From positions 1-64,000 of IMG/VR virus record IMGVR_UViG_2724679557_000005: a stretch of DNA of 64,000 nucleotides. One strand, given 5' to 3'. The stretch comes from a virus. Lineage: Duplodnaviria; Caudoviricetes. The position numbers and the translations under genes were made by a program. Below, in pieces: positions 43,220 through 55,975 of the stretch; within the stretch, counting starts at the first letter, position 1, and every line of letters begins with the position of its first letter. The notes below the pieces were generated by a model that worked only from the letters and a program-made list of their open reading frames with translations, did no database searches and was not told the origin of the DNA.

Positions 43220-45244
43220 TTATTGCAATTGTTCCTTAAGATTGAGTATTTCATTTGTAATTTCATTAACCAACAATCTACCCTCTTCATCACTCATATC
43301 TTCAATTTCTTTATTTATTATAGTTTTATTAAATTCTAATTTATTTAAAATATATTTATGATTTAGTTCAAAGTTTTTAAAAACATCATCCCATGTCATT
43401 GCATAAATTTCAAATTGCTTGCCACCTCTAACAAGAAATCTCTTTCCTTTATCTTTAAAAGTATCATATAAATCCATAATATCTTCATCAACTCTTTGAC
43501 TTACCATTATAAATTTCCATTTTCTACGACTACTATTAAATCTACCTTCTTTAGATATTAATCTCATATAGTCTTCAATTTGTCTATATATTATTGAGTC
43601 AAGTACAACACTTGGGGCTTTTAACTCAACAATAATATTTTCTTCATCCTCTGTAGCATTTTCAGAATATATACTTCTTGATCTGCACATAAATATGTCT
43701 GGTCTTCTTAATCTTTGAGGATTATCTATTAAATATTTTTCTTCACTTTTATATCCATCCAATATATATGTGTAATTTTCTAATGCTTTTTCAAAATTTT
43801 TATCAGCTGATACAATATTATATTGTTCTCCAAATAACCAATAATTTTCTTCTATAATTTTTTGTATATGATCTCTTTCATTTGTAAAATTAGTCATATC
43901 ATGTACTAAAAACTTAAGTGCTTCTATAACTTTTAATCTATTTTGAATGAGAGAAACAGTTTTAATTATTCTAGATAATGTAGTTTTCCTTAGTACGTCA
44001 TTCAATTGATTTCTTTCTTCTGTAGTTAAACTATTTATACTATCCATAATATTTATAATCCCCTCCCTTTCATCAGTATCCAATAACAAATTAAGAAATC
44101 CAACTATTGTTTTTTTGTGTTCAAAAGGGCCATTAAAAATTTTAGGCTGAATAACATAGATTTCAGTTAAAACTTCTTTTAGATCCTCTTTTTTCATTTC
44201 ACCATATTTGCCAGTCTTAAATTTAGGAAATACGCCTTCCTTCTCTAGTTGTTCTATTTTTTCTGGAGCTTTATCTTTGATATATAATTTTATTTGATCT
44301 TTTAATATATATATAAGTTTATTGTTTAACTCCTTAAAAGTTTTATCCTTTTGTGTCTTTTCATTTAATAATCCAATTTGATTTTCTAATTTATCTGTAG
44401 TTGAATCATCTTCATAAAAATCATCAAAATAGTTAGATTTTACATACATACTATGTGGAAACGCTAAACTCTTTTTATTAAAAGAAGTGAATTTTTTATA
44501 TACTTGAGTATTTTCACTATTTCTAAAATAGAAATAGTACTTTTCTTTAATTTTTCCATTCCATTTAATAAAATTAACCTTAAAATCATAATTATCAATT
44601 GAAAGAGTTAACTCTTTACTAAGTGATTCATCTATAAACGTCATATAATCTAATGATTTACCATCAATCAATATTTCATACTTATTTTCTCTGTTTAAAT
44701 ATAAAAACCAAGCAAATTGATCCTTTAAATATTGAATAAAATTATAATTACTTATATTTTCTTTTGTTAATGAATTTACTCCAGATAAAATTACCGTAGT
44801 CCCAATTTCATCTAAACAAATACATTTATCACTTACATCAAATTCAGTTGCATTTGATTTTAATATTTGTATGCTATATTTTTGATTATTATTACTATCA
44901 TTATAAACAGTATTCCATAATGCTATTTCAGCAAATGAAATAAATGAAAATCTTCCTTTTCCTTTTGATCCATGAATATTACTTTGTCTTTTTATTATTG
45001 ACTTATTAGAATCTAAAACACATTTAAAAGTTTTGTCTAAATCTTCATAAATTATACCTTTACCATTATCTTTTATATATATGCTCTCAATTCCACCTAA
45101 TTCATTTTCATTAAAAGTAATTTCAATTTTATTTGCTCCTGCATCAAATCCATTCCATATATATTCACTTATACATTCATTAAAATCTTGACTTATACCA
45201 AGTTTATTTATACTTTTATTTGTCAATCCTGCTGTGTATTTCAT
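43220..45244 (-). CDS. GHKL (MORC-like) ATPase fused to PD-(D/E)xK nuclease; Shedu-like candidate defence protein
   Basis: EYIWNGFDA, DNGKGI, G.KGKGRFS, GT.V; C-terminal ENYWLFGE, RPDIF, IVELK, QI..Y. Confidence 0.7.
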   Translation of the reverse strand: MKYTAGLTNKSINKLGISQDFNECISEYIWNGFDAGANKIEITFNENELGGIESIYIKDNGKGIIYEDLDKTFKCVLDSNKSIIKRQSNIHGSKGKGRFSFISFAEIALWNTVYNDSNNNQKYSIQILKSNATEFDVSDKCICLDEIGTTVILSGVNSLTKENISNYNFIQYLKDQFAWFLYLNRENKYEILIDGKSLDYMTFIDESLSKELTLSIDNYDFKVNFIKWNGKIKEKYYFYFRNSENTQVYKKFTSFNKKSLAFPHSMYVKSNYFDDFYEDDSTTDKLENQIGLLNEKTQKDKTFKELNNKLIYILKDQIKLYIKDKAPEKIEQLEKEGVFPKFKTGKYGEMKKEDLKEVLTEIYVIQPKIFNGPFEHKKTIVGFLNLLLDTDEREGIINIMDSINSLTTEERNQLNDVLRKTTLSRIIKTVSLIQNRLKVIEALKFLVHDMTNFTNERDHIQKIIEENYWLFGEQYNIVSADKNFEKALENYTYILDGYKSEEKYLIDNPQRLRRPDIFMCRSRSIYSENATEDEENIIVELKAPSVVLDSIIYRQIEDYMRLISKEGRFNSSRRKWKFIMVSQRVDEDIMDLYDTFKDKGKRFLVRGGKQFEIYAMTWDDVFKNFELNHKYILNKLEFNKTIINKEIEDMSDEEGRLLVNEITNEILNLKEQLQ

Positions 45245-45269
45245 TAAGCTACCCCCATTTAATTGTCTA

Positions 45270-45370
45270 TTGTATTTCATTCATAAACCAATTATAATAG
45301 AGGTATATTAAATAGAAATACATTTATAGTGAAACCACATTTGCTTTGCACGGCTAGTGGTTTCTTTTAT
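45270..45370 (+). ncRNA. Putative countertranscript antisense to the GHKL-nuclease leader
   Basis: TTGTAT-17-TATAAT; terminator GAAACCAC...GTGGTTTCTTTT. Confidence 0.55.
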
Positions 45371-45798
45371 TTTATAATACTTATAGTAAATGGACAAGCT
45401 TTCCATAATTTAAAAGTAAAAATGTCTCATATTATTATGTTTATTTTTCATTATGTAATCTTTACATAATGATGAAAAACCGTAGTAAGTATGTTTTTAT
45501 TTCTCAATCTCTTTAACTTAACCATTTTTTAAAATATGTAATATATTAGTCGTGGTATTCCAATAATAATTTTATTATTAAATTAATGTTATTTATAGTT
45601 ATAAAAATAAGGAAGGTGTTAACCTTCCCTAACAAAATTAGTATTTATTAAAATTCAACCTCTTCAAATATTTTATATTCATTACTTTTAATATTCTTAC
45701 AAACATATCCTGTCACATCATCATAATTTATTATATAGCTTTCAATAATCCATTCTTGAAAATTATCATCAGTAATAATATCATTAATGCAAATCATA

Positions 45799-47010
45799 TT
45801 ATCGTTCTCTTTCATTATTATTTGATTTTTCTTGAATATTATCTATAATCTTAAAAACTTCTTTATGCTCTATTCCAAATTTATCACATATATTATTTAT
45901 AGTTTCTTTATATATATTTTTTTCTTTAGTTGTCTTTTCTAATGCATTATACAGCAATCTTTCGTTATATGAATCATCATACTTTTCTAATTGTTTATCT
46001 TGCATATTATAATAGCCTTCTAAATCATCTTCTAATTCTTCAATGTGTTTATCTTTAAGTGTATTTTCTTGTGTAATGGTAAATAACATTTTATCTTGAT
46101 CATGTATTTTATTATTTAATAAATTATTTTCATTTTCTAATTTACTAATTTCTTTTATTAAATTAGAAATATAAACCTTGTTATTTCTATCTAATTTATT
46201 TATTTTCTCTACTAGATCCTTTGTATCTTCATTTTTTTCTATTTCCATCAATGTGTATTCCAAAGCTTTAACTCTCTTCTCTAATAAATAACTATGTTTA
46301 GCATATGCTAATACTTGCCTATCATCTATTAGATCAAGTTTTTTCGTTATTAGAGAGTAATAAGTTTTTATATCCATATGCTTTGCCTTAGAACCTCTTA
46401 CTCCCCTAATAAGATTATTAAATCTTTTATTCATATGCTCTGAGTATTTATCTTGCCAGGTCCTCATTTTTTCAATTCCATCAAAATATTTGTTTGAAGA
46501 TAATTCATATCTATTTTTTTCATTATTATAAAACCTAGGTACTATTAAAGCATGTATATGAGGTGTAGTTTCATCCATGTGTAATGTTGCATATAGACAA
46601 TTCTCACCAAAATGTTTATTTAAAAAGTTAATATTTTCATGTATCCATTCTTCTTTTTCTTGTTGTGGTAAACTATTGTAAAATCCATTTCCAGTAGTTA
46701 ATACAAGGTCTGTTGCTATATTAGCATTACTTCTTATCTTAATTCCATAAACATGATTTTTAACATTTTCAACTATATTGTTGTTGCCTATTAATACTCT
46801 ATTTTTATCTTTTTGTCTTGGATCTGCATTAATCACATCCATTTCTCTTTCCATATGCTTTTGGAAGGCTTCAACCTGACCTAAATCTTTTATCTTTTTA
46901 CCTACTCTAAATACACAAAAATATACATTAGCTCTAGCTCCAGTAATTTTCTTATTATATTTTTCTAATAAATTTTTATTATCTTCAATTGAATAATTCT
47001 TCTGATACAT
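45799..47010 (-). CDS. MobV/Pre family relaxase (plasmid recombination enzyme)
   Basis: HMER, HMDETTPHIH HUH motif, WQD, RG..GS...H; coiled-coil C-terminus. Confidence 0.85.
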   Translation of the reverse strand: MYQKNYSIEDNKNLLEKYNKKITGARANVYFCVFRVGKKIKDLGQVEAFQKHMEREMDVINADPRQKDKNRVLIGNNNIVENVKNHVYGIKIRSNANIATDLVLTTGNGFYNSLPQQEKEEWIHENINFLNKHFGENCLYATLHMDETTPHIHALIVPRFYNNEKNRYELSSNKYFDGIEKMRTWQDKYSEHMNKRFNNLIRGVRGSKAKHMDIKTYYSLITKKLDLIDDRQVLAYAKHSYLLEKRVKALEYTLMEIEKNEDTKDLVEKINKLDRNNKVYISNLIKEISKLENENNLLNNKIHDQDKMLFTITQENTLKDKHIEELEDDLEGYYNMQDKQLEKYDDSYNERLLYNALEKTTKEKNIYKETINNICDKFGIEHKEVFKIIDNIQEKSNNNERER

Positions 47011-48544
47011 CTTTTACAACATCATCTTTTATAATTTCTAGCTTTAGCTTCTCAATCTCACTATCAATATCTATTTTTTTAATATTATTATGGTTAACAT
47101 TAGAAGTAGCTGAATATATATTGCTTGTATATAGAGAGTTTGTATAATATCTATCCTGTATACTTAATATTGGTTGTTTATTACTTGTTATAATTAACAC
47201 TTGGTTATCATCAAGACATCTTAACTCACTATTTTCAAATAGCTTGATTTTAGTTTTAGAATAACTGTGTGTAATATTTTGCTTATTAACATTTGTATTG
47301 CATATAGTTATTTCTTTATTTCCACAAAGATCACTTAAATAATTTGTAGTATCTGAATCAGATAATCCAGGAAGGATTATTTTAGTCTTAAGATTATTTA
47401 GAATTGCTTTCCCATTAGCTACTCCATAGGTTTGAAATAGCTGAGTTATAGATTGTAAGCAAATATTCATGCTTATTTTACGACTTCTTATAGTTGCTAC
47501 ATTTACACTCATATTATTTAACATACCTATATTACCAAATTCATCAAATAGCATAGTTATAGGAAGATTATTTTCTGTATAACTGTCAATTAGCTTGTTT
47601 AATGCTTGGCTGAAGAACGGTGCTATAAATGGTGCCAAATAAGGTGCTTTATTCTCAGGATAGCAAACATATAATATTGTAGGTTCTTCTCTAAATTTTT
47701 CTATATCAAATGTATTTTCAACTCCAACTTGATTTATTCTGTTATCTATAAATAATTTCATATTACTTGCTAATGTTATTTTAATACTACCTTCTGTTCT
47801 ATCAGCTCCAGTAACAGTTTTAAATATATTCCATTGGTTTATACAATCTATATTATTACTGCTATTAAATAAGGAATCTAATTGTTCTGTATCTAGATTA
47901 ATAATTAACTTAAATGCAAACTCTATATTATTAAATGGATATTCCAAATTCTTAGCATAAAGTAAAGCTGCTGCTAAAAGTGGTTCAGCCATCTGTATCC
48001 ATTCTACTCCCCCTGTTTTCTTCCCTGTACTTAGTTCAATTGACAAAGCACCATTAAAAAGAAGAGTTGAAGCTAACTCCACAATTTCGCTATCATCTTT
48101 ACAACTTGTTAATAGATTATATTTTTCACTTGTTCCTGGTGATAGCGGAGAAAATTTCAGTACCTTTCTACCGCAAATCCTTTCCTGGTACTTTGAAGTC
48201 AATTTAAACAGTTCTTCTTTAGGATCTGTTACTATTATACTGCCTTTTATATTATTACTAAGTAAATTAGGAAAGAAAAAAGAACTTGTTTTACCACTTC
48301 CAGTAGGTGCTATAGTAACACTACCTTCAAAGTCAAACTGTTCTTTTAACTGTATATCTTTACTCAATATTAATCCTGTGTTTCCTAAAATATTTTCTAG
48401 TTTATCTTTTGATTCAATATATGCTGTTGCAAGTCTTCCTACCCTATTAGCTTTATTTCTAATAAAATAAGACAATATTTCTCCACTAGCAGCTATACCA
48501 CCAGTAGCTATTGTAAAAATCTTAAGTTGTTCAATTATATCCAT
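46985..48544 (-). CDS. VirD4/TraG-like type IV coupling protein
   Basis: APTGSGKT, TDPK.EL, FDEFGNIG, IRSR.I, QS..QL...YG. Confidence 0.85.
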   Translation of the reverse strand: MDIIEQLKIFTIATGGIAASGEILSYFIRNKANRVGRLATAYIESKDKLENILGNTGLILSKDIQLKEQFDFEGSVTIAPTGSGKTSSFFFPNLLSNNIKGSIIVTDPKEELFKLTSKYQERICGRKVLKFSPLSPGTSEKYNLLTSCKDDSEIVELASTLLFNGALSIELSTGKKTGGVEWIQMAEPLLAAALLYAKNLEYPFNNIEFAFKLIINLDTEQLDSLFNSSNNIDCINQWNIFKTVTGADRTEGSIKITLASNMKLFIDNRINQVGVENTFDIEKFREEPTILYVCYPENKAPYLAPFIAPFFSQALNKLIDSYTENNLPITMLFDEFGNIGMLNNMSVNVATIRSRKISMNICLQSITQLFQTYGVANGKAILNNLKTKIILPGLSDSDTTNYLSDLCGNKEITICNTNVNKQNITHSYSKTKIKLFENSELRCLDDNQVLIITSNKQPILSIQDRYYTNSLYTSNIYSATSNVNHNNIKKIDIDSEIEKLKLEIIKDDVVKDVSEELFN

Positions 48545-48556
48545 AAATACCCCCTA

Positions 48557-48630
48557 TTGATTTTAGAGCAACTTTAAGTTATACTAATATTGCTGTATAG
48601 GTAGTGGCTTAAAGTTGCTGCCTTTTTTAT
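48557..48630 (+). ncRNA. Putative countertranscript in the virD4 leader
   Basis: TTGATT-17-TATACT; terminator GGTAGTGGC..GTTGCTGCCTTTTTT. Confidence 0.5.
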
Positions 48631-48654
48631 TTGATTAAAACTTCAATATCCACA

Positions 48655-48891
48655 CTACATATTCTCCCTATATTTTTTGTATTCTTGAATTATATTTCCC
48701 TTTTTAAAATCTTTTTTATCTTCTTTTTTATAATATAAATCAACTAATTTGTTATAAGTAGATATTAAAATGCTTGCAACCTTCCAACTTGAACTTTCTT
48801 TAATATTGAATTTATTACTACATTCATATTCTGCTTCCATAAAACATAAATCTATATCATCACTAATTCTGTCTAACATATGATCATCCAT
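48655..48891 (-). CDS. Hypothetical protein
   Basis: Tightly packed in rep-virD4 operon. Confidence 0.55.
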   Translation of the reverse strand: MDDHMLDRISDDIDLCFMEAEYECSNKFNIKESSSWKVASILISTYNKLVDLYYKKEDKKDFKKGNIIQEYKKYRENM

Positions 48892-48895
48892 ATTA

Positions 48896-49123
48896 TCAAT
48901 TCCTTTCTAATTCTTTTTCCATAGCCAGTTTCAATTTTTGAGTTTTTTGAGAAGCTATTTTTAGATAATGTTCTATTTCTTTGTATTCACCTTGAATATC
49001 ATGACCAACTATCATAGATTTACAATTTACAGACATATAATAAACAATATTTCTTATAATATCTATGTTATCTTCAACATCTTGTAATTTGTTACATTCT
49101 TCTTTTTCAACATACAATCTCAT
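48896..49123 (-). CDS. Hypothetical protein
   Basis: AGGAGGG RBS. Confidence 0.6.
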   Translation of the reverse strand: MRLYVEKEECNKLQDVEDNIDIIRNIVYYMSVNCKSMIVGHDIQGEYKEIEHYLKIASQKTQKLKLAMEKELERN

Positions 49124-49148
49124 GTATTATCCCTCCTGACTTATTTAA

Positions 49149-49838
49149 TTAAATCAATGCTAACATTCCTTTTAAATCAAAAGTTGATTCTTCATCTATA
49201 TATTCAAGATCATTTTCCCAGCCTAATAATTTATTTTCTAAAGAATCATAATCGTATGATCTTGGCTCAAAGTTATCAAATTTAAGTTTTTTAACAACCT
49301 CTTCTTTATTTGTTTTAGTCTTTGCATAATTACCCTTTAATGCTGCTATAGTATAAGAATATAAATTCTTAGCACCTTTAGATGTAGCATAATTAAATGC
49401 ATTTAGAACTTTATCTATTTTCTCATTAGCAATTTTAAATAAACTCTTTGCTTGCTTTGCTGAAAAACCAAGACTTATAATTTCTTTTACTTCTTCAGTT
49501 ACTTCTGAAAAATCCATTTGACCATCTATATGTTTATTACCGTTTGAATCATTGTGTTTATTATCTAAGAATAAATATTTTAGTAATTTATAAGTATTTT
49601 TCTTACCAGCTTTAGTAATTGAGATATAACCTTTTTTAACTAAAGATTTTAATAATTTAGAAACTTTAGCTCTTCTTTTAGTTTTTAAATCAGACATGAG
49701 TATTTCATAGCTTGGATAAGCATATCCTATAGATACATTATAATAATCAAAGATAAGCTCTAACATATAAGACTCTTCTAAAGATAGGTTTATATCTTTC
49801 TTTACTGCATTTCTAAATTTTAAATAATCTTTAGCCAT
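49149..49838 (-). CDS. Winged-helix replication initiator-like protein
   Basis: AYPSYE.L.......R..V...L..L...GYI, NTY; C-terminal FDNFEPR.YD..LE.KLLGW. Confidence 0.7.
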   Translation of the reverse strand: MAKDYLKFRNAVKKDINLSLEESYMLELIFDYYNVSIGYAYPSYEILMSDLKTKRRAKVSKLLKSLVKKGYISITKAGKKNTYKLLKYLFLDNKHNDSNGNKHIDGQMDFSEVTEEVKEIISLGFSAKQAKSLFKIANEKIDKVLNAFNYATSKGAKNLYSYTIAALKGNYAKTKTNKEEVVKKLKFDNFEPRSYDYDSLENKLLGWENDLEYIDEESTFDLKGMLALI

Positions 49839-49865
49839 TTTTTAGTTTCACCTCTTCTTTTTTCA

Positions 49866-49928
49866 TTTTGCCGTATAAATAATTTTTCTGTATAAATTTA
49901 TATTAAATCTTTTTGCCGTATAAGTCAA
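49866..49928. promoter_or_regulatory. Divergent rep/RHH promoter region with TTTTGCCGTATAA repeats
   Basis: Copies at 49866 and 49911, degenerate copy at 49883; minus-strand TTGACT-17-TAATAT. Confidence 0.6.
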
Positions 49929-49999
49929 CTACTTTTATTATACTTTTAATTTATTTTATGATATAATTAAATTATAAAATAATACATGGAGTTGAGATT

Positions 50000-50158
50000 G
50001 TGGAGAAAAAAGTATCTAAAAATGAAAATAGAGAAAAACTAACTGTTCTTATAGATAAAGATATAAAGAAAGACATGAAAAAAGAAATTGTAGATCTTGA
50101 TTGTTCTATGGGTGAATTTATAGAGAGTTTATATGAATCTTATAAAAAGAAAAAATAG
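50000..50158 (+). CDS. 52-aa ribbon-helix-helix (CopG/ParG-like) protein (not in ORF track)
   Basis: GTG start; REKLTVLIDKDIKKDMK...SMGEFIESL; followed by terminator. Confidence 0.6.
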   Translation: MEKKVSKNENREKLTVLIDKDIKKDMKKEIVDLDCSMGEFIESLYESYKKKK

Positions 50159-50262
50159 ATGTATTGGGGGTTAATCCAATACATCTATTTTTTTATTTTC
50201 TATAATAAATACAACTATTTAAAATAAAAAAACTAAGAGATAAAAATATAATCTCCTAGTTT

Positions 50263-50523
50263 TTATTTGATTGCTTTTAATTTCGCTATATCTTGCCAAT
50301 TCTTAGCTGTTACAGCTTCAACTGTATTTATATCACTCTTGATGCTAGTAATATCTTCTGCTGTTCTAGCTACTTGGTTATATGTTATATCAATTTTATT
50401 TTCGATTCTTCTTTGACCATCTTTTAATTCTTTAATATCTTGTGTATTTTCATCAATCTTTAATTCCAATGATCTAATACTGTGTTTTACTTCCCTTAAT
50501 AGTTCTAAAATCTCATTTTCCAT
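50263..50523 (-). CDS. Coiled-coil hypothetical protein
   Basis: AGAGGTG RBS; heptad pattern. Confidence 0.65.
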   Translation of the reverse strand: MENEILELLREVKHSIRSLELKIDENTQDIKELKDGQRRIENKIDITYNQVARTAEDITSIKSDINTVEAVTAKNWQDIAKLKAIK

Positions 50524-50654
50524 AACAACACCTCTTTGTTATTATAGCATAAAACTATTTATTATACAGATCTCTATCAAATTATTTTTATATGCAGTGT
50601 TAATATATATAATTAATATAATTTAATTAATATAAAACTAAGTAATATATGAAA

Positions 50655-50741
50655 TTCCAAAAGTGAAACTCATATGGAATTCTAAAAACGAAACTTATTT
50701 AAGGTACACTTTTGGAACTTATTTAGGTTTCTATTTTAGAA
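50655..50741. repeat. Four iteron-like repeats (2 direct + 2 inverted) beside an AT-rich tract; putative origin
   Basis: TTCCAAAAGTGAAACT, TTCTAAAAACGAAACT, rc TTCCAAAAGTGTACCT, rc TTCTAAAATAGAAACCT. Confidence 0.6.
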
Positions 50742-50840
50742 CTAAAAAACAGCAAGCATTTTACTTACTGTTATTTTTATTGTTGTTATGACATTACAAC
50801 TAAAGTAAATGCCAGGAACATCAATATTCTTGGCATTTGT

Positions 50841-51509
50841 TTATTTTAAATTAAATTGTGCTTTTAAATCCATACTATCGTTAGTAAAAGTAAAATTAGC
50901 ATTTGATCCATCCTTACTAATATATGAATACAATTTAGCAGTAGAATCCATTATTTTAGTTTCTGATGTTAATTCTCCTTCTCCTAATATCCCTTTAACT
51001 TGATCATATGTCATTCCATTTTGTATTTGATTATATAAATCCATTGTAATATTTGCATTAGGTTTTTGTAAGAAAGCTTGAGCTTTTGCTGTAACAGCTC
51101 CATTTTGAATTGTTACGTTCATATTTCCCATACCAGAACCTTTCCATTCATACAAAGTTGTTTTTATACCTGCTAATTCATTTGATGAACTTTCTTTACC
51201 TTCTCCAAGTAATGCAACTACTTCTTCATATGATTGTCCCATTTGTATGTTTAGAAAGTTTTCATATGTTATTTTAGTATCTTCTTTCTTGGTTTCTACT
51301 TTATTTGAAGATGCTGCTTCTGTTGAACTATTATTATTACTATTAGCTCCAGAACCTGCTGCTCCAATTAAAACAATCACTACTATAAACCATACCCACC
51401 ATTTCTTATAGAAAGGTTTCTTATTTTTTGCACCACAACCTGGGCAAGCTTTTGCACTTGAAGCTATATCAGCTCCACATGTTTTACATTTAATCATTTT
51501 TGACATCAT
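50841..51509 (-). CDS. Zinc-ribbon + TM + tandem BLIP-like (DUF3862-like) membrane protein
   Basis: CKTCG...CPGCG, KKPFYKKWW TM, two IT...Y..IQ.GM.Y..V..LLGEG repeats. Confidence 0.7.
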   Translation of the reverse strand: MMSKMIKCKTCGADIASSAKACPGCGAKNKKPFYKKWWVWFIVVIVLIGAAGSGANSNNNSSTEAASSNKVETKKEDTKITYENFLNIQMGQSYEEVVALLGEGKESSSNELAGIKTTLYEWKGSGMGNMNVTIQNGAVTAKAQAFLQKPNANITMDLYNQIQNGMTYDQVKGILGEGELTSETKIMDSTAKLYSYISKDGSNANFTFTNDSMDLKAQFNLK

Positions 51510-51683
51510 TATTTCCCCTTTTTCTAATTTATAGTATTATTGTACATTATTTGCACTTTATTGTAAAATAATCTAATAGTTGTAATAGTTGTTTTTGAGT
51601 AAAAAAATAAAACAGTAAGTATTTTTTATAATTCCTTACCGTTTTATTGAAAATTGCAATTAATATCAATATATATAACAATT

Positions 51684-52445
51684 TTAGTTAATTAAAGTTG
51701 AAGCTTTAGATGCAGTTTTTATTGTTGCATATTCTGAAAAGCTTTCACTTGATTTTAAATATTCATTTCCTTTTATTGAAATTGCTTTTACTATTCCAAT
51801 AGTATCAATTTTTTCTTTGACATTAAATAGTACTAAAATTTTTGTTCCTTTTATCTTGCCATTTTGATATTCTTTCATGCCATTTTTAATTACTATTTTA
51901 CTATTTCCACTTTCTAATTCAAATTTTCCACCTATATCATTCACAATATTGCTAACCATATACAATCCAAATCCAGAATTTTGCCAAACATCATCTCTAA
52001 GAGGATCCTTTTTCCAACTTTTTGTTATACCTGGTCTTACTGCAAATGCTAATGCAGTTTTATTGTCCTTTACAGAATACATAGGATTACTATTCAAACT
52101 TTTTTTAATACCTATTCCATTATCAATGACTTCAAAACCAAAATCACCAAATTCATTAGAATACAAGGATAAGTTAAAATTTTCAGCTTCACTATGTTCA
52201 ACTACATTTCTCATTATTTCTCTCATTAGATATGCACAAAAATTTCTATATTTAATATTAAAATTATAATTTTCTAATAGTACTTTAGCCATTTTTTCTA
52301 TAGTTTCGCCTACATACTCCATATTTTTATATGAGTCTTTTTTTAGATTTTCAACATGGAATTTAAAGTGGTTATCTAAATTTAAAACAATTTTACCTTT
52401 AATACCTTTAATACTTTTATTAATTGATTTATCTGAAATTACCAT
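51684..52445 (-). CDS. HATPase (anti-sigma/histidine kinase-like ATPase) protein
   Basis: EIMRNVVEHS, DNGIGI, NSGFGLY, GT. Confidence 0.75.
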   Translation of the reverse strand: MVISDKSINKSIKGIKGKIVLNLDNHFKFHVENLKKDSYKNMEYVGETIEKMAKVLLENYNFNIKYRNFCAYLMREIMRNVVEHSEAENFNLSLYSNEFGDFGFEVIDNGIGIKKSLNSNPMYSVKDNKTALAFAVRPGITKSWKKDPLRDDVWQNSGFGLYMVSNIVNDIGGKFELESGNSKIVIKNGMKEYQNGKIKGTKILVLFNVKEKIDTIGIVKAISIKGNEYLKSSESFSEYATIKTASKASTLIN

Positions 52446-52485
52446 ATATCCAACCTCCTAATATATATTATATATCAGACTATTA

Positions 52486-53460
52486 TTATAATATTCTGCT
52501 AATATCTATTTTATCCATCTTTTTATATTCTTTAGCTTCTTTAGTTCCCTTTATAGATAATTCTTTCATTATATCAGAAATTTTGCCCATTTTCTCTGAA
52601 TTTAATCTTATTCTAATTGCTGTACCTTTAAATGATGTTTCATATTTTATAGTTTCCTTATCATTTATTAATAAACAATTATTCCCAGTACATATAGCAA
52701 TATCCCCACCTGTTTCACAAAAATTGCTAATCATATATAATCCAAAACCACCATTATCGTACTGATCTTTTATAGTTTTTCCAATTCCACTCTTGCTAAT
52801 TCCAGGTTGCATTGCTAATTTAATTGCATCTTCATCACTATTTATAGTTAGTTTTTTATTTCTTTTAAAACTTTCTTTCATTCCAATTCCTTCATCTAAA
52901 ACAGCAACTTCTACAATGCCTTTGCTTGGCCAAAATTGTCCTGCATACCAAAAGCTTTCTGATTCACTATGTTCTAATACATTTCTAATTAATTCACTAG
53001 TACTATATTTTAAATATTTTTTTAAATTTGAATCATTTCTAGCTAATATGTTAGCTATGTCTTCTGAAGTTTTATCTATATATGTATATATGTCTTTATT
53101 ATCTTTTCTAATGTCATTAAAATTCAATTCTGTAAGAGGTATATATGTACTACTTCCCTGTGCTTCACCTGGGTTTTTTCCATAATCCTGATATACACTT
53201 TTAAAAAATCCCATATGAGCTATATATCCAGTAACATTTTTTTGATTTTTAAAATTTTTATCTTTATGTTCACATTCTGGCGGTGTGTCATCTACAAATC
53301 TTCTTATTTTAGAAGACATCAATAATAATCCAAAAGGTTCTGCTCTATTTATCTCCTCATAATCATAGATATAACTATCATCATTATGTATAGTATCCAT
53401 AAAATTGCAAAAATTCAATGTACTTTGTAAATCTAGTGTCTTAGGTATTTTAATTTTCAT
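52486..53460 (-). CDS. STAS-like + HATPase protein, paralogue of 51684-52445
   Basis: ELIRNVLEHS, DEGIG, NGGFGLY, GT; N-terminal EPFGLL..YIAHMGFF. Confidence 0.75.
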   Translation of the reverse strand: MKIKIPKTLDLQSTLNFCNFMDTIHNDDSYIYDYEEINRAEPFGLLLMSSKIRRFVDDTPPECEHKDKNFKNQKNVTGYIAHMGFFKSVYQDYGKNPGEAQGSSTYIPLTELNFNDIRKDNKDIYTYIDKTSEDIANILARNDSNLKKYLKYSTSELIRNVLEHSESESFWYAGQFWPSKGIVEVAVLDEGIGMKESFKRNKKLTINSDEDAIKLAMQPGISKSGIGKTIKDQYDNGGFGLYMISNFCETGGDIAICTGNNCLLINDKETIKYETSFKGTAIRIRLNSEKMGKISDIMKELSIKGTKEAKEYKKMDKIDISRIL

Positions 53461-53482
53461 CTAGTTTCCTCCATTACTAATG

Positions 53483-53585
53483 TTGTATGCGTTTATAAAA
53501 TTATGCTATAATAGAGGTATATTTAACAAATCCTATTACAGCCAAGAACTCATGATGTATTTAGAGTACTTTCATGGGTTTTTGT
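53483..53585 (+). ncRNA. Putative countertranscript antisense to the HATPase-pair leader
   Basis: TTGTAT-18-TATAAT with TG extension; terminator CAAGAACTCATGA...TCATGGGTTTTTG. Confidence 0.55.
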
Positions 53586-53739
53586 TTATATTTACATAAT
53601 ACTATATTTTGTCCATTTTTTCCATAAATAAAAAATAGCTGGTAACTAAGAAAAAACTCTCTTAGTTACCAGCTATCTTGTTTTCTAACTTTATGTGTAA
53701 TTCAGTCAGATATTATTATACTATATTTTTATCTAAGTG

Positions 53740-55668
53740 TTATACATTTCCTAAATAATCTCCATCAATAAATAAATTAGATTCACTAATTCTTCTTCTA
53801 TCTAATCCATCTGAATATTCTTTATTTGCTTTATTCCACATTCTAAAGTATTCTTTTATTTTTGATGAATCTCTTCCACGACTACAAATATAATTATATA
53901 ATGTAGATCTAAACAATGATTGTATTCCACAGTTATACGCAAAACTTATTAATGCATCAAATTGGTTACTATTTAAAGATACACCTTTATTATCTAAGTC
54001 ATTCTTTAATTTATTTGCACAATTATTAGCTTCTTGTTTCAACCATTTTAATGCCTGTTCTTTTGTACAAGTAGATTCTAAACCATCTGGAAATGCTTCT
54101 GGAATCGAACAATAACAAGTACCATGTCCTATTGTCCAATAATCTTTAATACTTTCACCATAATAAGGATCAGCATAAGCTTTTTCATAAAATCCTTCCC
54201 AAATTCCAATAAATCTAGCACATTTTTCGCTTACTAAGTTTTCTTCTATTAAGTGACCATTTTTATCAAAAGAATATTGCTTTGCATTAATTGTTGCAGC
54301 ACAATCCATATAACATTTACCCATATGACCATTACTTTGTTCTTCTAGGTAATACCATGTTCCATTATCATTTAACCAACCAGTTTTCATTGCTCCACTT
54401 GGATCTAAATAAAACCATTCTTCATTAATTTTAATCCAACCTGTCTGCATTATACAATTTTCATTAAAGTAATAATATTTACCGTGTATAAATACCCACC
54501 CAGTATATGCATATCCATTATCTATATCTAAATAGAACCATTCTCCCTTCTCATTTTGATACCATTCAGTTATCATTTTCCCATCTTGTGCAAACCTATA
54601 CCATTTGTTATTCCAGTATAACCAATCATTTTTTAACATTTTACAAGAACCTGATTGTAGAAAGTACCAATGTCCATTATCTTTAATCCAATCTCCATTA
54701 ATAGTAAATGAATTTTTAAAATAGTACCATTCATCTTTAATTTCTTTCCATCCGTTTTCTATTAAATGTTCACCATCTTCGGAATAGAGCCACTTATCAA
54801 TTATTTTATCTTTATTCCAACCTATTTTATATTTAGTTATAATAACTTTTTTAGGTATATCAGTAAATCCCCATACTTCATCAATCATTTTTGTGTCTTC
54901 TATATTTACATAGCAATAACCATTCAAACACCAATATTTTCCCCAACTATTTTGTATTTTTAAATATAATTTATTATCTTTATATTTATAACCTACAATA
55001 ACCATCGCATGACGACCACATTTTTTACCTTCACTTGGATATTCTACAATTCCATCTGTACCTGGATGATTTACTTTATAAAAACTATCATATAATACCG
55101 TTGTTATAACTAAAGGTTTCTTTTCATTGTATAAATATATCGGAACATCTTCTAAATCAACTCTCACATATGATTGACATTTTAAACTTTTTGCTTTTTC
55201 TATTAATTCATTTTTGTTATTTAAAGAATCAAATAACTCACTTATCTTTGGATAATCCTCTAAATTAGGAAAATCTATTTTAGGAATTATTCCACTCTCA
55301 CAAGCTAATTTCATAATTTCTCTTGTTACTGCACCTTTTCCTAATTGGCAACCATATTCATCTCTCATAGCATTTAAAAATCCTTCTGATAAATATTCAT
55401 TTGTATTTTTTATTATTTCTATAAGAGCTGTTACTGATTGAAATGCACAAGTAGAAGTATTAGCTTGATTTCTAGGTTCAAATTGATAATTTATTTCAAA
55501 TTCATTCGGTAAATCCTTATCATTATTGCTGCAAAAATCCTTGTAATTATAATCTCTCAAATCTATAGGACTTTCTATAACCCCATCTAAAGGTATTTCT
55601 TCATAATTTAATCTATTCACAAAATCTCTCCTTTTATAATCTCCATTTAAATCATAAAAAGGTAGCAT
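53740..55668 (-). CDS. Endolysin: C1 papain-like peptidase + cell-wall-binding repeats + GH24 lysozyme
   Basis: NQ..TSTC, HAMVIVGY, QNSWG..W..NGY; WYY repeats; WEG..YAD..WTIGHG, FDALISFAYNCG. Confidence 0.85.
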   Translation of the reverse strand: MLPFYDLNGDYKRRDFVNRLNYEEIPLDGVIESPIDLRDYNYKDFCSNNDKDLPNEFEINYQFEPRNQANTSTCAFQSVTALIEIIKNTNEYLSEGFLNAMRDEYGCQLGKGAVTREIMKLACESGIIPKIDFPNLEDYPKISELFDSLNNKNELIEKAKSLKCQSYVRVDLEDVPIYLYNEKKPLVITTVLYDSFYKVNHPGTDGIVEYPSEGKKCGRHAMVIVGYKYKDNKLYLKIQNSWGKYWCLNGYCYVNIEDTKMIDEVWGFTDIPKKVIITKYKIGWNKDKIIDKWLYSEDGEHLIENGWKEIKDEWYYFKNSFTINGDWIKDNGHWYFLQSGSCKMLKNDWLYWNNKWYRFAQDGKMITEWYQNEKGEWFYLDIDNGYAYTGWVFIHGKYYYFNENCIMQTGWIKINEEWFYLDPSGAMKTGWLNDNGTWYYLEEQSNGHMGKCYMDCAATINAKQYSFDKNGHLIEENLVSEKCARFIGIWEGFYEKAYADPYYGESIKDYWTIGHGTCYCSIPEAFPDGLESTCTKEQALKWLKQEANNCANKLKNDLDNKGVSLNSNQFDALISFAYNCGIQSLFRSTLYNYICSRGRDSSKIKEYFRMWNKANKEYSDGLDRRRISESNLFIDGDYLGNV

Positions 55669-55684
55669 TTATTGCTACCTAAAA

Positions 55685-55975
55685 CTATTCTTGCTTATTT
55701 AATTGTTTAGCCGTTTGGTTAATACCAACAGCTACTCCCCAGCATAACACACCTTGTAATGTACCATTCACAATAACATCTAATGTAACTCTATATTCTG
55801 TGTTAATTATACTTAATAATATTGCAAAAGTAATACCAAATAGCATTAATATACTTGTTATATATTTATCTTGTATACTCTCTAACTTTTTAAGAAATAT
55901 TCCAACTACATATATGCCAGCAATAACTATAAATAAACTTTCAGGTATAAACTGTACTAAATTTGTATATTCCAT
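55685..55975 (-). CDS. Phage holin
   Basis: Three hydrophobic segments, QGVL..GVAVG.NQ..KQ; precedes endolysin. Confidence 0.8.
   Translation of the reverse strand: MEYTNLVQFIPESLFIVIAGIYVVGIFLKKLESIQDKYITSILMLFGITFAILLSIINTEYRVTLDVIVNGTLQGVLCWGVAVGINQTAKQLNKQE

Follow-up and report, generated by a model that had tools for sequence, protein, structure and literature searches.

In leader-targeting type I toxin-antitoxin (TA) loci (tisB/istR-1, zorO/orzO, the Enterococcus par locus with fst/RNA II and the type I TA loci of C. difficile prophages), a small RNA (sRNA) targets the 5' leader upstream of a sequestered ribosome-binding site (RBS), and the toxin is a small (usually <60 amino acids; aa), hydrophobic or membrane peptide. 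Here, we describe a cassette of ~170 bases that is found twice in the first 64 kb (the window; GC 26.6%) of the 90.5-kb provirus record IMGVR_UViG_2724679557_000005, once in front of a gene for a GHKL-type ATPase and once in front of a HATPase-like gene pair. The cassette combines a predicted antisense RNA with a leader that carries an anti-Shine-Dalgarno (anti-SD) sequence. An earlier reading of the same letters (the original prediction) had called this arrangement type I TA-like. The regulatory layout agrees: a strongly promoted small antisense RNA is predicted opposite the leader, control would run through leader structure rather than direct occlusion of the RBS, the location is a prophage or mobile element and contacts between terminator loops are plausible. 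The genes behind the cassette (the cargos) do not: they are large (170-674 aa in 36 of the 39 that are complete) and diverse, with at least 23 families and no resemblance to small membrane peptides, and a single leader family is reused across all of them.

Countertranscript-driven attenuation is known for the rep genes of pT181, pIP501 and pAMbeta1. The cassette is similar in that the antisense RNA is predicted to pair with the 5' part of the leader and to remove a pre-emptor helix, upon which a downstream inhibitory helix would form. In the plasmids this inhibitory helix is a terminator, whereas here it is an anti-SD:SD helix; no U-tract follows it in either window leader, the spacer and AUG coming next, and the output should therefore be translational. 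The function under control also differs, namely plasmid replication there and prophage cargo here. Among the phage antisense RNAs, P22 sar and P1 c4 pair with the ribosome-binding region, and lambda OOP base-pairs with the cII message at its 3' end, causing it to be cleaved. The cassette RNA would likewise be a short phage-encoded antisense RNA that lowers the expression of its neighbour but, unlike that of sar and c4, its transcription would lead away from the RBS, leaving that site uncovered.

Phage morons are autonomous promoter-gene-terminator units in the late region or near the attachment (att) sites of temperate phages. The cassette and its cargo fit this description as an independent transcription unit with its own promoter that lies after the lysis genes and before att and is insulated by the lysin terminator. 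Morons are not known to have in common a conserved antisense and anti-SD leader of their own; such a common leader is what distinguishes the cassette.

In the AbiF/RCd22 pair of a C. difficile prophage, RCd22 is reported to carry abiF motifs and to neutralize the protein by direct binding, like a type III antitoxin (PMC12373285). The two systems are alike in that an RNA would hold down an anti-phage gene carried by a prophage of a clostridial host, AbiF being described as toxic; RCd22, however, is described as a sense-strand, protein-binding RNA (PMC12373285), whereas the predicted cassette RNA is an antisense one that would act on translation and that matches no Rfam family. Neither a type III TA locus nor an abiF-motif RNA describes the cassette, as its RNA unit is on the opposite strand. 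Tandem repeats were absent from 45244-45400 and 53460-53600, and just a 9-nt x 2.2 repeat was found at 53606-53625; the abiF family gave no Rfam match in the leaders, provided that Rfam 15 holds that family.

The cassette was not found described in the literature searched (supplementary files outside scope). We regard it as belonging to a known kind, cis-antisense control of translation, here in the form of a portable module for prophage accessory and defence genes. With a confidence somewhat better than even, based on its sequence and on folding models, we read it as a self-contained expression unit in which a predicted antisense RNA and an RBS-masking leader would switch a moron gene.

Architecture of the two leaders

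Both leaders have the same layout. The minus strand carries a putative mRNA promoter and then a leader containing the anti-SD CCUCUAUUAUA. A second, convergent promoter is predicted on the plus strand; its invariant TATAAT complements the anti-SD, and an intrinsic terminator comes after it. The features are as follows, in positions of the window.

Leader 1
45244-45400: the cassette, upstream of the 674-aa GHKL ATPase gene
45252-45256, minus strand: SD GGGGG of cargo 1, inside AAUGGGGGUA, which pairs with the anti-SD
45270-45298, plus strand: predicted sRNA-1 promoter TTGTAT-17-TATAAT (TTGTAT at 45270-45275), from sequence and family promoter statistics
45271-45278, minus strand: 3' arm GAAAUACA of the class I helix on the mRNA strand, from helix covariation
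45293-45309: conserved 17-mer, copy 1; -10 box and start region of the sRNA on the plus strand, anti-SD and complement of the translation-initiation region (anti-TIR) AAUAUACCUCUAUUAUA on the minus strand
45305-45373, plus strand: predicted antisense sRNA-1, ~68 nt, from the fold, with its start placed from the -10 box
45369-45397, minus strand: predicted mRNA-1 promoter TTGTCC-17-TAAAAT, with a probable start at ~45362-45364, the hairpin base

Leader 2
53460-53625: the cassette, upstream of the HATPase-like gene pair
53468-53472, minus strand: SD GGAGG of cargo 2, inside GUAAUGGAGG, from sequence
53483-53512, plus strand: predicted sRNA-2 promoter TTGTAT-18-TGcTATAAT (TTGTAT at 53483-53488, outside the predicted helices), from sequence and family promoter statistics
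53507-53523: conserved 17-mer, copy 2; -10 box on the plus strand, anti-SD on the mRNA strand
53519-53590, plus strand: predicted antisense sRNA-2, ~70 nt (fold z = -3.7), with a putative start site
53533-53542, minus strand: anti-anti-SD GCUGUAAUAG, which pairs with CUAUUAUAGC (53505-53514) and lies within the sRNA-complementary stretch
53596-53624, minus strand: predicted mRNA-2 promoter TGGAAA-17-TATTAT, a block conserved in related leaders

The elements named by the original prediction were all located. The 17-mer TATAATAGAGGTATATT is exact at both plus-strand positions, with no third copy in the 90.5-kb record; the TTGTAT-17/18-TATAAT promoters lie upstream of both genes; plus-strand hairpins with U-tails follow both 17-mers; and the two 10-bp anti-SD:SD pairings were recovered with RNAduplex energies of -12.2 kcal/mol (leader 1) and -13.1 kcal/mol (leader 2). 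The alternative helix that it proposed for leader 2 (53533-53542 with 53505-53514) is the minimum-free-energy (MFE) fold. A repeated 17-mer is in itself unremarkable, with 5-17 expected at this composition per first-order Markov resample of the window and 254 in the window itself; the case therefore rests on the shared architecture and on conservation elsewhere.

The hairpins begin 22-36 nt past the 17-mer. Predicted sRNA-1 would consist of a 5' single-stranded stretch including GAAAUACA (45315-45322), the terminator hairpin (45331-45364) and a U-run; the stem is GAAACCAC (45331-45338) with GUGGUUUC (45357-45364), and the T-run is 45365-45373. The sRNA-2 terminator stem spans ~53543-53584 and runs into GUUUUUGUUU. 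A simple terminator scanner listed neither hairpin, their loops being longer than its 8-nt limit.

The start of cargo 1 is likely to be ATG 45244, which is preceded by the GGGGG SD. The in-frame ATG at 45280, the start in the list of open reading frames (ORFs), was rejected as it lacks an SD. The word AAUGAAAUACA occurs twice in leader 1 (45232-45283, minus strand), at ATG 45244 and 36 nt upstream in frame, at ATG 45280; the upstream copy is the 3' arm of the class I helix, and in the MFE fold of leader 1 the start-codon copy pairs with the 5' arm instead. The -35 areas of mRNA promoters repeatedly contain another word, CTTGTCCA or TGGACAAG, which occurs in one orientation or the other (e.g. 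45390-45399 and 53613-53620) and may reflect two ways to make a -35 box or an operator half-site.

A conserved cassette family

The cassette is a conserved family with two copies in the window and not a chance repeat. A covariance model (CM) spanning -35 to terminator was built from 13 leaders; it gives 81.8 bits to window copy 1 and 69.6 bits to copy 2, the next match in the record having 20.7 bits. The original prediction had proposed searching genomes for the motif and listing the downstream genes; the CM matched at least 26 of the 130 genomes of the C. nigeriense genus and at least 10 of the 149 sampled genomes of its family, counts that are lower bounds as 25-29 candidates were scored per genome. 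Across 150 sampled Clostridia (the class), no genome besides the query genome matched. The leader is indeed portable and shared by unrelated genes, as had been claimed: 36 first-set members carry cargos that fall into 23 BLASTP clusters.

The exact 17-mer was also sought, with a layout of divergent gene start with SD, -35, 17-mer, ~25 nt and terminator. IMG/VR gave 36 loci, of which eight have the full layout (L007, L011, L014, L015, L020, L023, L031 and L036, judged by eye; a script flagged seven of these, not L015). The genome collection gave eight with the layout among at least 120 loci, including Clostridium nigeriense and several Clostridium metagenome-assembled genomes; a ninth that the script had flagged, L094, was rejected by eye as a chance match. 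The remaining exact loci are chance matches to an AT-rich word. The 17-mer is nearly invariant across the family while the flanks have diverged.

In C. tetani phage phiCT453A there is a CM match of 69.3 bits in unannotated DNA, between an amidase gene (plus three small ORFs) and two hypothetical genes preceding attR. Searching GenBank phages with blastn, the L036-type leader alone recovered C. tetani phages; both window leaders together gave one chance 28-nt match to an E. coli phage and nothing else, and an L161-type leader gave no match. Against Rfam, neither leader had a match in gathering mode, and E-value mode on both leaders gave weak unrelated matches only. Two weak CM matches are out of the tallies, L187 (without a cargo start) and L199 (with TATAAC and a 40-aa ORF), and two reverse-strand matches on terminator hairpins were excluded (L031 on the minus strand and L193 on the plus strand).

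In a divergent subgroup (L116, L126 and L148), the 17-mer and terminator are kept, the first ORF is 44 aa and a gene for an alpha/beta-hydrolase-like protein follows 111 nt later; the 44-aa ORF could be a leader peptide or a decayed cargo.

The predicted plus-strand RNA unit

By its sequence conservation, the plus-strand unit looks like a real gene. With L187 and L199 dropped, all 44 distinct promoter regions have TATAAT. Of the 27 members with a poor -35 (e.g. TTTATA), 22 have an extended -10 (TGn), against two of the 17 whose -35 starts with TTG (Fisher 7e-6), a trade-off that would be the compensation expected of working promoters, though the members are related. The terminator stem has compensatory changes at six of eight pairs (15 sequences), as expected of an intrinsic terminator, and the predicted antisense RNA is 65-72 nt long across the family. 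Its body varies between members. The strongly conserved TATAATAGAGG lies upstream of the probable sRNA start and is therefore present at the RNA level only in the mRNA, as CCUCUAUUAUA.

The predicted sRNA has no conserved small ORF. A candidate (AGAGG then ATG, giving MKY... peptides in some members) was rejected: other members, both window copies among them, have ACG or no start codon at this place, and its SD would fall upstream of the predicted sRNA start. At the terminator tip, an element GAUUGGUAGUC (a 4-bp mini-stem with a GGU loop) is present in forward orientation in 19, inverted in five and absent from 23 of 47 distinct terminators; examples are L159, L165, L170, L031 and L191, and both window copies lack it. 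One idea is that it is conserved for a kissing contact between the complementary hairpin tips of sRNA and mRNA.

The gene-strand leader

Just beyond the terminator, 39 of 45 leaders have a sigma-70-like promoter (at least 9 of 12 positions) on the gene strand, mostly with non-consensus -10 boxes (TAAAAT, TACAAT and TATTAT). The mRNA would therefore start at or near the complement of the terminator hairpin and contain the complement of the whole sRNA.

The pairing of the anti-TIR with the TIR was compared between 36 cargo TIRs and 76 other SD-bearing TIRs from the same loci. The duplex has a median of -10.7 kcal/mol for the cargos and -8.05 kcal/mol for the controls (Mann-Whitney 6.6e-5), and a duplex at least as stable as the cargo median is seen in 9% of the controls. 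Of 20,000 permutations of the anti-TIR/TIR pairs, all but 21 did worse than the matched pairs.

The 5' segment of the leader forms one of two helices with the anti-SD region, and in both classes the 5' strand of the helix is within the sRNA-complementary part. Class I comprises 29 sequences, leader 1 among them. An arm (G/A)UAUUUCA here reaches across the anti-SD to pair with UGAAAUA(C/U); 94.8% of the cells are paired, against 85.6% in shuffles and at most 57% in slid controls, and there are 27 double-change cells against 8.6 in shuffles (neither value is reached in any of 500 shuffles). Class II comprises 12 sequences, among them leader 2, and in these an SD-like UAUAAUAGAG and CUCUAUUAUA pair with each other directly over 12 pairs. 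Covariation is thus present in three helices: the terminator, the anti-SD-flanking helix and the anti-anti-SD helix. Cells that are G-U on the mRNA strand number 25, against nine that are A-C there and G-U on the opposite strand (binomial 0.009).

Partition-function folds were computed for 36 leaders. The mean unpaired probability of the SD is 0.37 in the free leader and 0.19 both when the sRNA-bound segment is masked and when it is shuffled; with masking, 18 leaders have a lower value and two a higher one, and with shuffling, 17 have a lower value and none a higher one. For leader 2 the value falls from 0.64 to 0.00 when the 53533-53542 segment is masked. This architecture, conservation, covariation and in silico switching were computed directly.

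Proposed mechanism and alternatives

From these results we infer the production of both RNAs, their ends, repression by the sRNA and a physiological signal, as follows. Each cassette would have two convergent promoters ~75-100 bp apart. The weaker, on the gene strand, would give an mRNA that opens with a 5' stem-loop and carries the anti-SD/anti-TIR AAUAUACCUCUAUUAUA ~40-50 nt before the start codon; the stronger, on the opposite strand and with a perfect TATAAT as the anti-SD complement, would give an antisense RNA of ~65-72 nt that ends at the intrinsic terminator. Its complement would be the first ~70 nt of the mRNA. As long as the mRNA is unbound, the 5' segment would keep the anti-SD occupied or constrained, either by the 5' arm pairing across it (class I; leader 1) or by the SD-mimicking anti-anti-SD pairing with it directly (class II; leader 2). 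Binding of the antisense RNA to the 5' segment would free the anti-SD, which would close on the SD and start region and block translation; RNase III might also cut the sRNA:mRNA duplex. The cassette would be reused in this way before many unrelated cargos, usually directly after an endolysin. The original prediction had already held that the antisense RNA covers the arm that frees the RBS, and the promoter features, the covariation in the terminator and leader helices, and the folding models fit such a refolding.

Several results weigh against this mechanism. Masking has no modelled effect in 16 of 36 leaders, and in leader 1 the SD has an unpaired probability of 0.00 in every fold model and is closed even without sRNA. 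Anti-SD variants are mostly uncompensated: the member's own anti-SD beats the canonical one in six of 18 variant members, with mean duplex energies of -8.1 kcal/mol (own) and -9.6 kcal/mol (canonical). The MFE of the whole region has no mRNA-strand bias (19 versus 16 of 37, p = 0.19), and covariation of an inverted repeat alone cannot separate an RNA helix from a DNA palindrome. The family members are related, so that the shuffle and permutation p-values overstate independence, and the CM includes the promoter and 17-mer, so that its matches resemble the seeds by construction. The facing promoters, lying within ~100 bp of each other, could also interfere without any RNA pairing. This last point belongs to an explanation in which the leader acts alone, the anti-SD being a constitutive or condition-sensing throttle in cis (e.g. 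through temperature or co-transcriptional folding) and the opposite promoter acting mainly by transcriptional interference or collision rather than by RNA-RNA pairing. It would suit the several leaders, window leader 1 included, in which the SD is predicted to be closed without sRNA, and it draws on the anti-TIR:TIR complementarity, which is the best-supported pairing. It leaves unexplained the conserved, covarying terminator that limits the antisense transcript to ~70 nt, as well as the opening of the SD by the sRNA-complementary 5' segment (native above shuffled in 17 of 36 leaders and never below), which is reached in two structural solutions. We consider this explanation unlikely.

It is highly improbable, in our judgement, that the plus-strand RNA has targets of its own, as a prophage sRNA acting in trans or as a protein-binding RNA, and that the cargos merely insert beside it. 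Its near-consensus promoter and the conserved apical GAUUGGUAGUC on many terminator hairpins would suit such a role. Against it, the most conserved bases (TATAATAGAGG) are outside the sRNA and in the mRNA, and the body of the sRNA varies between members; the apical element is also found in inverted form, as would be expected of a cis pair more than of a fixed target in trans; and the distance to the cargo is fixed, the start codon and the -10 complement being separated by 35-52 nt in all but one of 45 members. We give very little credence to the absence of any regulation, in which the cassette would be a conserved piece of phage backbone or a recombination joint for cargo swapping, with the promoters and pairings as by-products of AT-rich DNA. 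The cassette does sit at a known accessory-gene hotspot, mostly with a lysin directly upstream, and in L007, L079 and L117 identical promoter blocks are joined to different cargos with the breakpoint just inside the -35. A joint would nevertheless not account for a 17-mer that stays nearly invariant between diverged flanks, for compensatory changes that preserve three different helices, for -35 and TGn features that compensate each other or for cargo TIRs that pair with the anti-SD better than control TIRs do; in addition, window cassette 1 is not beside a lysin.

The antisense-controlled leader switch is thus our preferred reading. A further step, which we hold to be decidedly doubtful, would make the cassette a general safety catch for prophage abortive-infection effectors: a short-lived, strongly transcribed antisense RNA would block translation of the longer-lived, 5'-stem-loop-protected mRNAs of dozens of unrelated toxic proteins and, when host transcription stops for any reason (e.g. 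on infection by a phage), the antisense RNA would decay and the effector would be made.

Cargo genes and prophage position

Complete cargos are 44-674 aa long, with at least 170 aa in 36 of 39. Those with an annotation include KwaB, the PADLOC candidates PDC-S02 and PDC-M03A/M66A (HipA_2-like), a TPR/cold-shock defence protein, NA37, DUF6414, DUF6731, a ParA-like ATPase and GHKL ATPases; many have no annotation match, and most cargo families are unannotated. The original prediction took the cargos for putative defence genes. This is partly borne out: nine of 29 first-gene cargos match PADLOC models (KwaB twice, PDC-S02 three times, PDC-M03A/M66A twice, TPR-CSD once and, weakly, a DrmA fragment once), and neither window cargo matched one. 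In L159 (= L023/L052) and L197, KwaB is the first gene after the leader (PADLOC about 1e-48); in Kiwa, kwaA precedes kwaB.

The window genes concerned are the following.

55685-55975, minus strand: prophage holin (gene order in descending coordinates)
53740-55668, minus strand: phage endolysin (cell-wall-binding repeats, lysozyme-type domain), the next gene upstream of cassette 2
53632-53679, minus strand: strong terminator of the endolysin gene, 5' of cassette 2, from the terminator scan
52486-53460, minus strand: first gene of cargo 2, a 324-aa protein with a weak Pfam HATPase_c_2 match (0.004, below the curated cut-off)
51684-52445, minus strand: second gene of cargo 2, a 253-aa HATPase_c protein, paralogue of the 324-aa gene (33% identity)
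45799-49838, minus strand: small mobilisable element between the two cassettes, from domain matches
43220-45244, minus strand: cargo 1, the 674-aa GHKL-type ATPase gene (N-terminal Pfam HATPase_c_3, 8.7e-18)

Cargo 1 had been called a GHKL nuclease; the N-terminal GHKL ATPase stands, and the nuclease half was not confirmed, no further domain match being found in PADLOC, NCBIfam, PDB or Atlas. The window cargos are not similar to each other (BLASTP, E = 1.1). A homologue of cargo 1 (673 aa) is behind the same kind of leader in L117/L162, and a homologue of the first gene of cargo 2 in L157/L163. L162 and L164 are two cassette copies with GHKL-type cargo on separate contigs of one genome (G002). 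The simple terminator scan found no terminator 3' of the window cargos.

Twenty members, chosen by long same-strand ORFs from the 35 with a called ORF, were tested for what precedes the cassette; in 16 the adjacent same-strand gene upstream encodes an endolysin domain, and the other four have TIR_2, GDSL lipase, DUF3800 and no match. We therefore see the cassette as the element that usually opens the accessory ('moron') locus located just past the endolysin in Clostridium prophages. In L179 the TIR_2-domain protein (384-1370, not a lysin) directly upstream suggests stacked defence genes at the locus.

In the window, the minus strand carries every gene across 41.7-64 kb. Cassette 2 has the usual post-endolysin position and is insulated from late transcription because the strong endolysin terminator intervenes. 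Cassette 1 adjoins not a lysin but the mobilisable element, which has a MobV relaxase (NF041497, 2.7e-32) and a CD1115-family VirD4-like coupling protein, both within 45799-48544, and a winged-helix protein, and which may have inserted into the prophage accessory region. The next gene past cargo 1 in descending coordinates is the chromosomal miaB. The sole Rfam gathering-level match in the window is a pan motif (RF01749; 19498-19583, plus strand, 52.4 bits), and chromosomal pantothenate genes are therefore implied nearby.

Biological implications

One 17-base element can serve both strands, as a -10 box on one and as an anti-SD on the other, and the recurrence of the cassette before many unrelated accessory genes points to an off-switch that can be used again and again on genes whose expression carries a risk. 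If the switch works as predicted, temperate phages of Clostridium control an exchangeable accessory-gene hotspot, some of whose genes are known or candidate anti-phage systems, with one portable RNA module. The CM would then be a sequence tag for new cargo and defence genes in Clostridiaceae prophages, and the cassette would offer AT-rich Gram-positive hosts a compact, natural translational switch built on two promoters. Whether defence genes can be triggered via RNA turnover rather than by protein sensors could also be tested directly. Should the safety-catch reading be true, the sensor of infection would be an RNA pair and not a protein, exchangeable between effectors, and the logic of type I TA systems would extend to large defence proteins.

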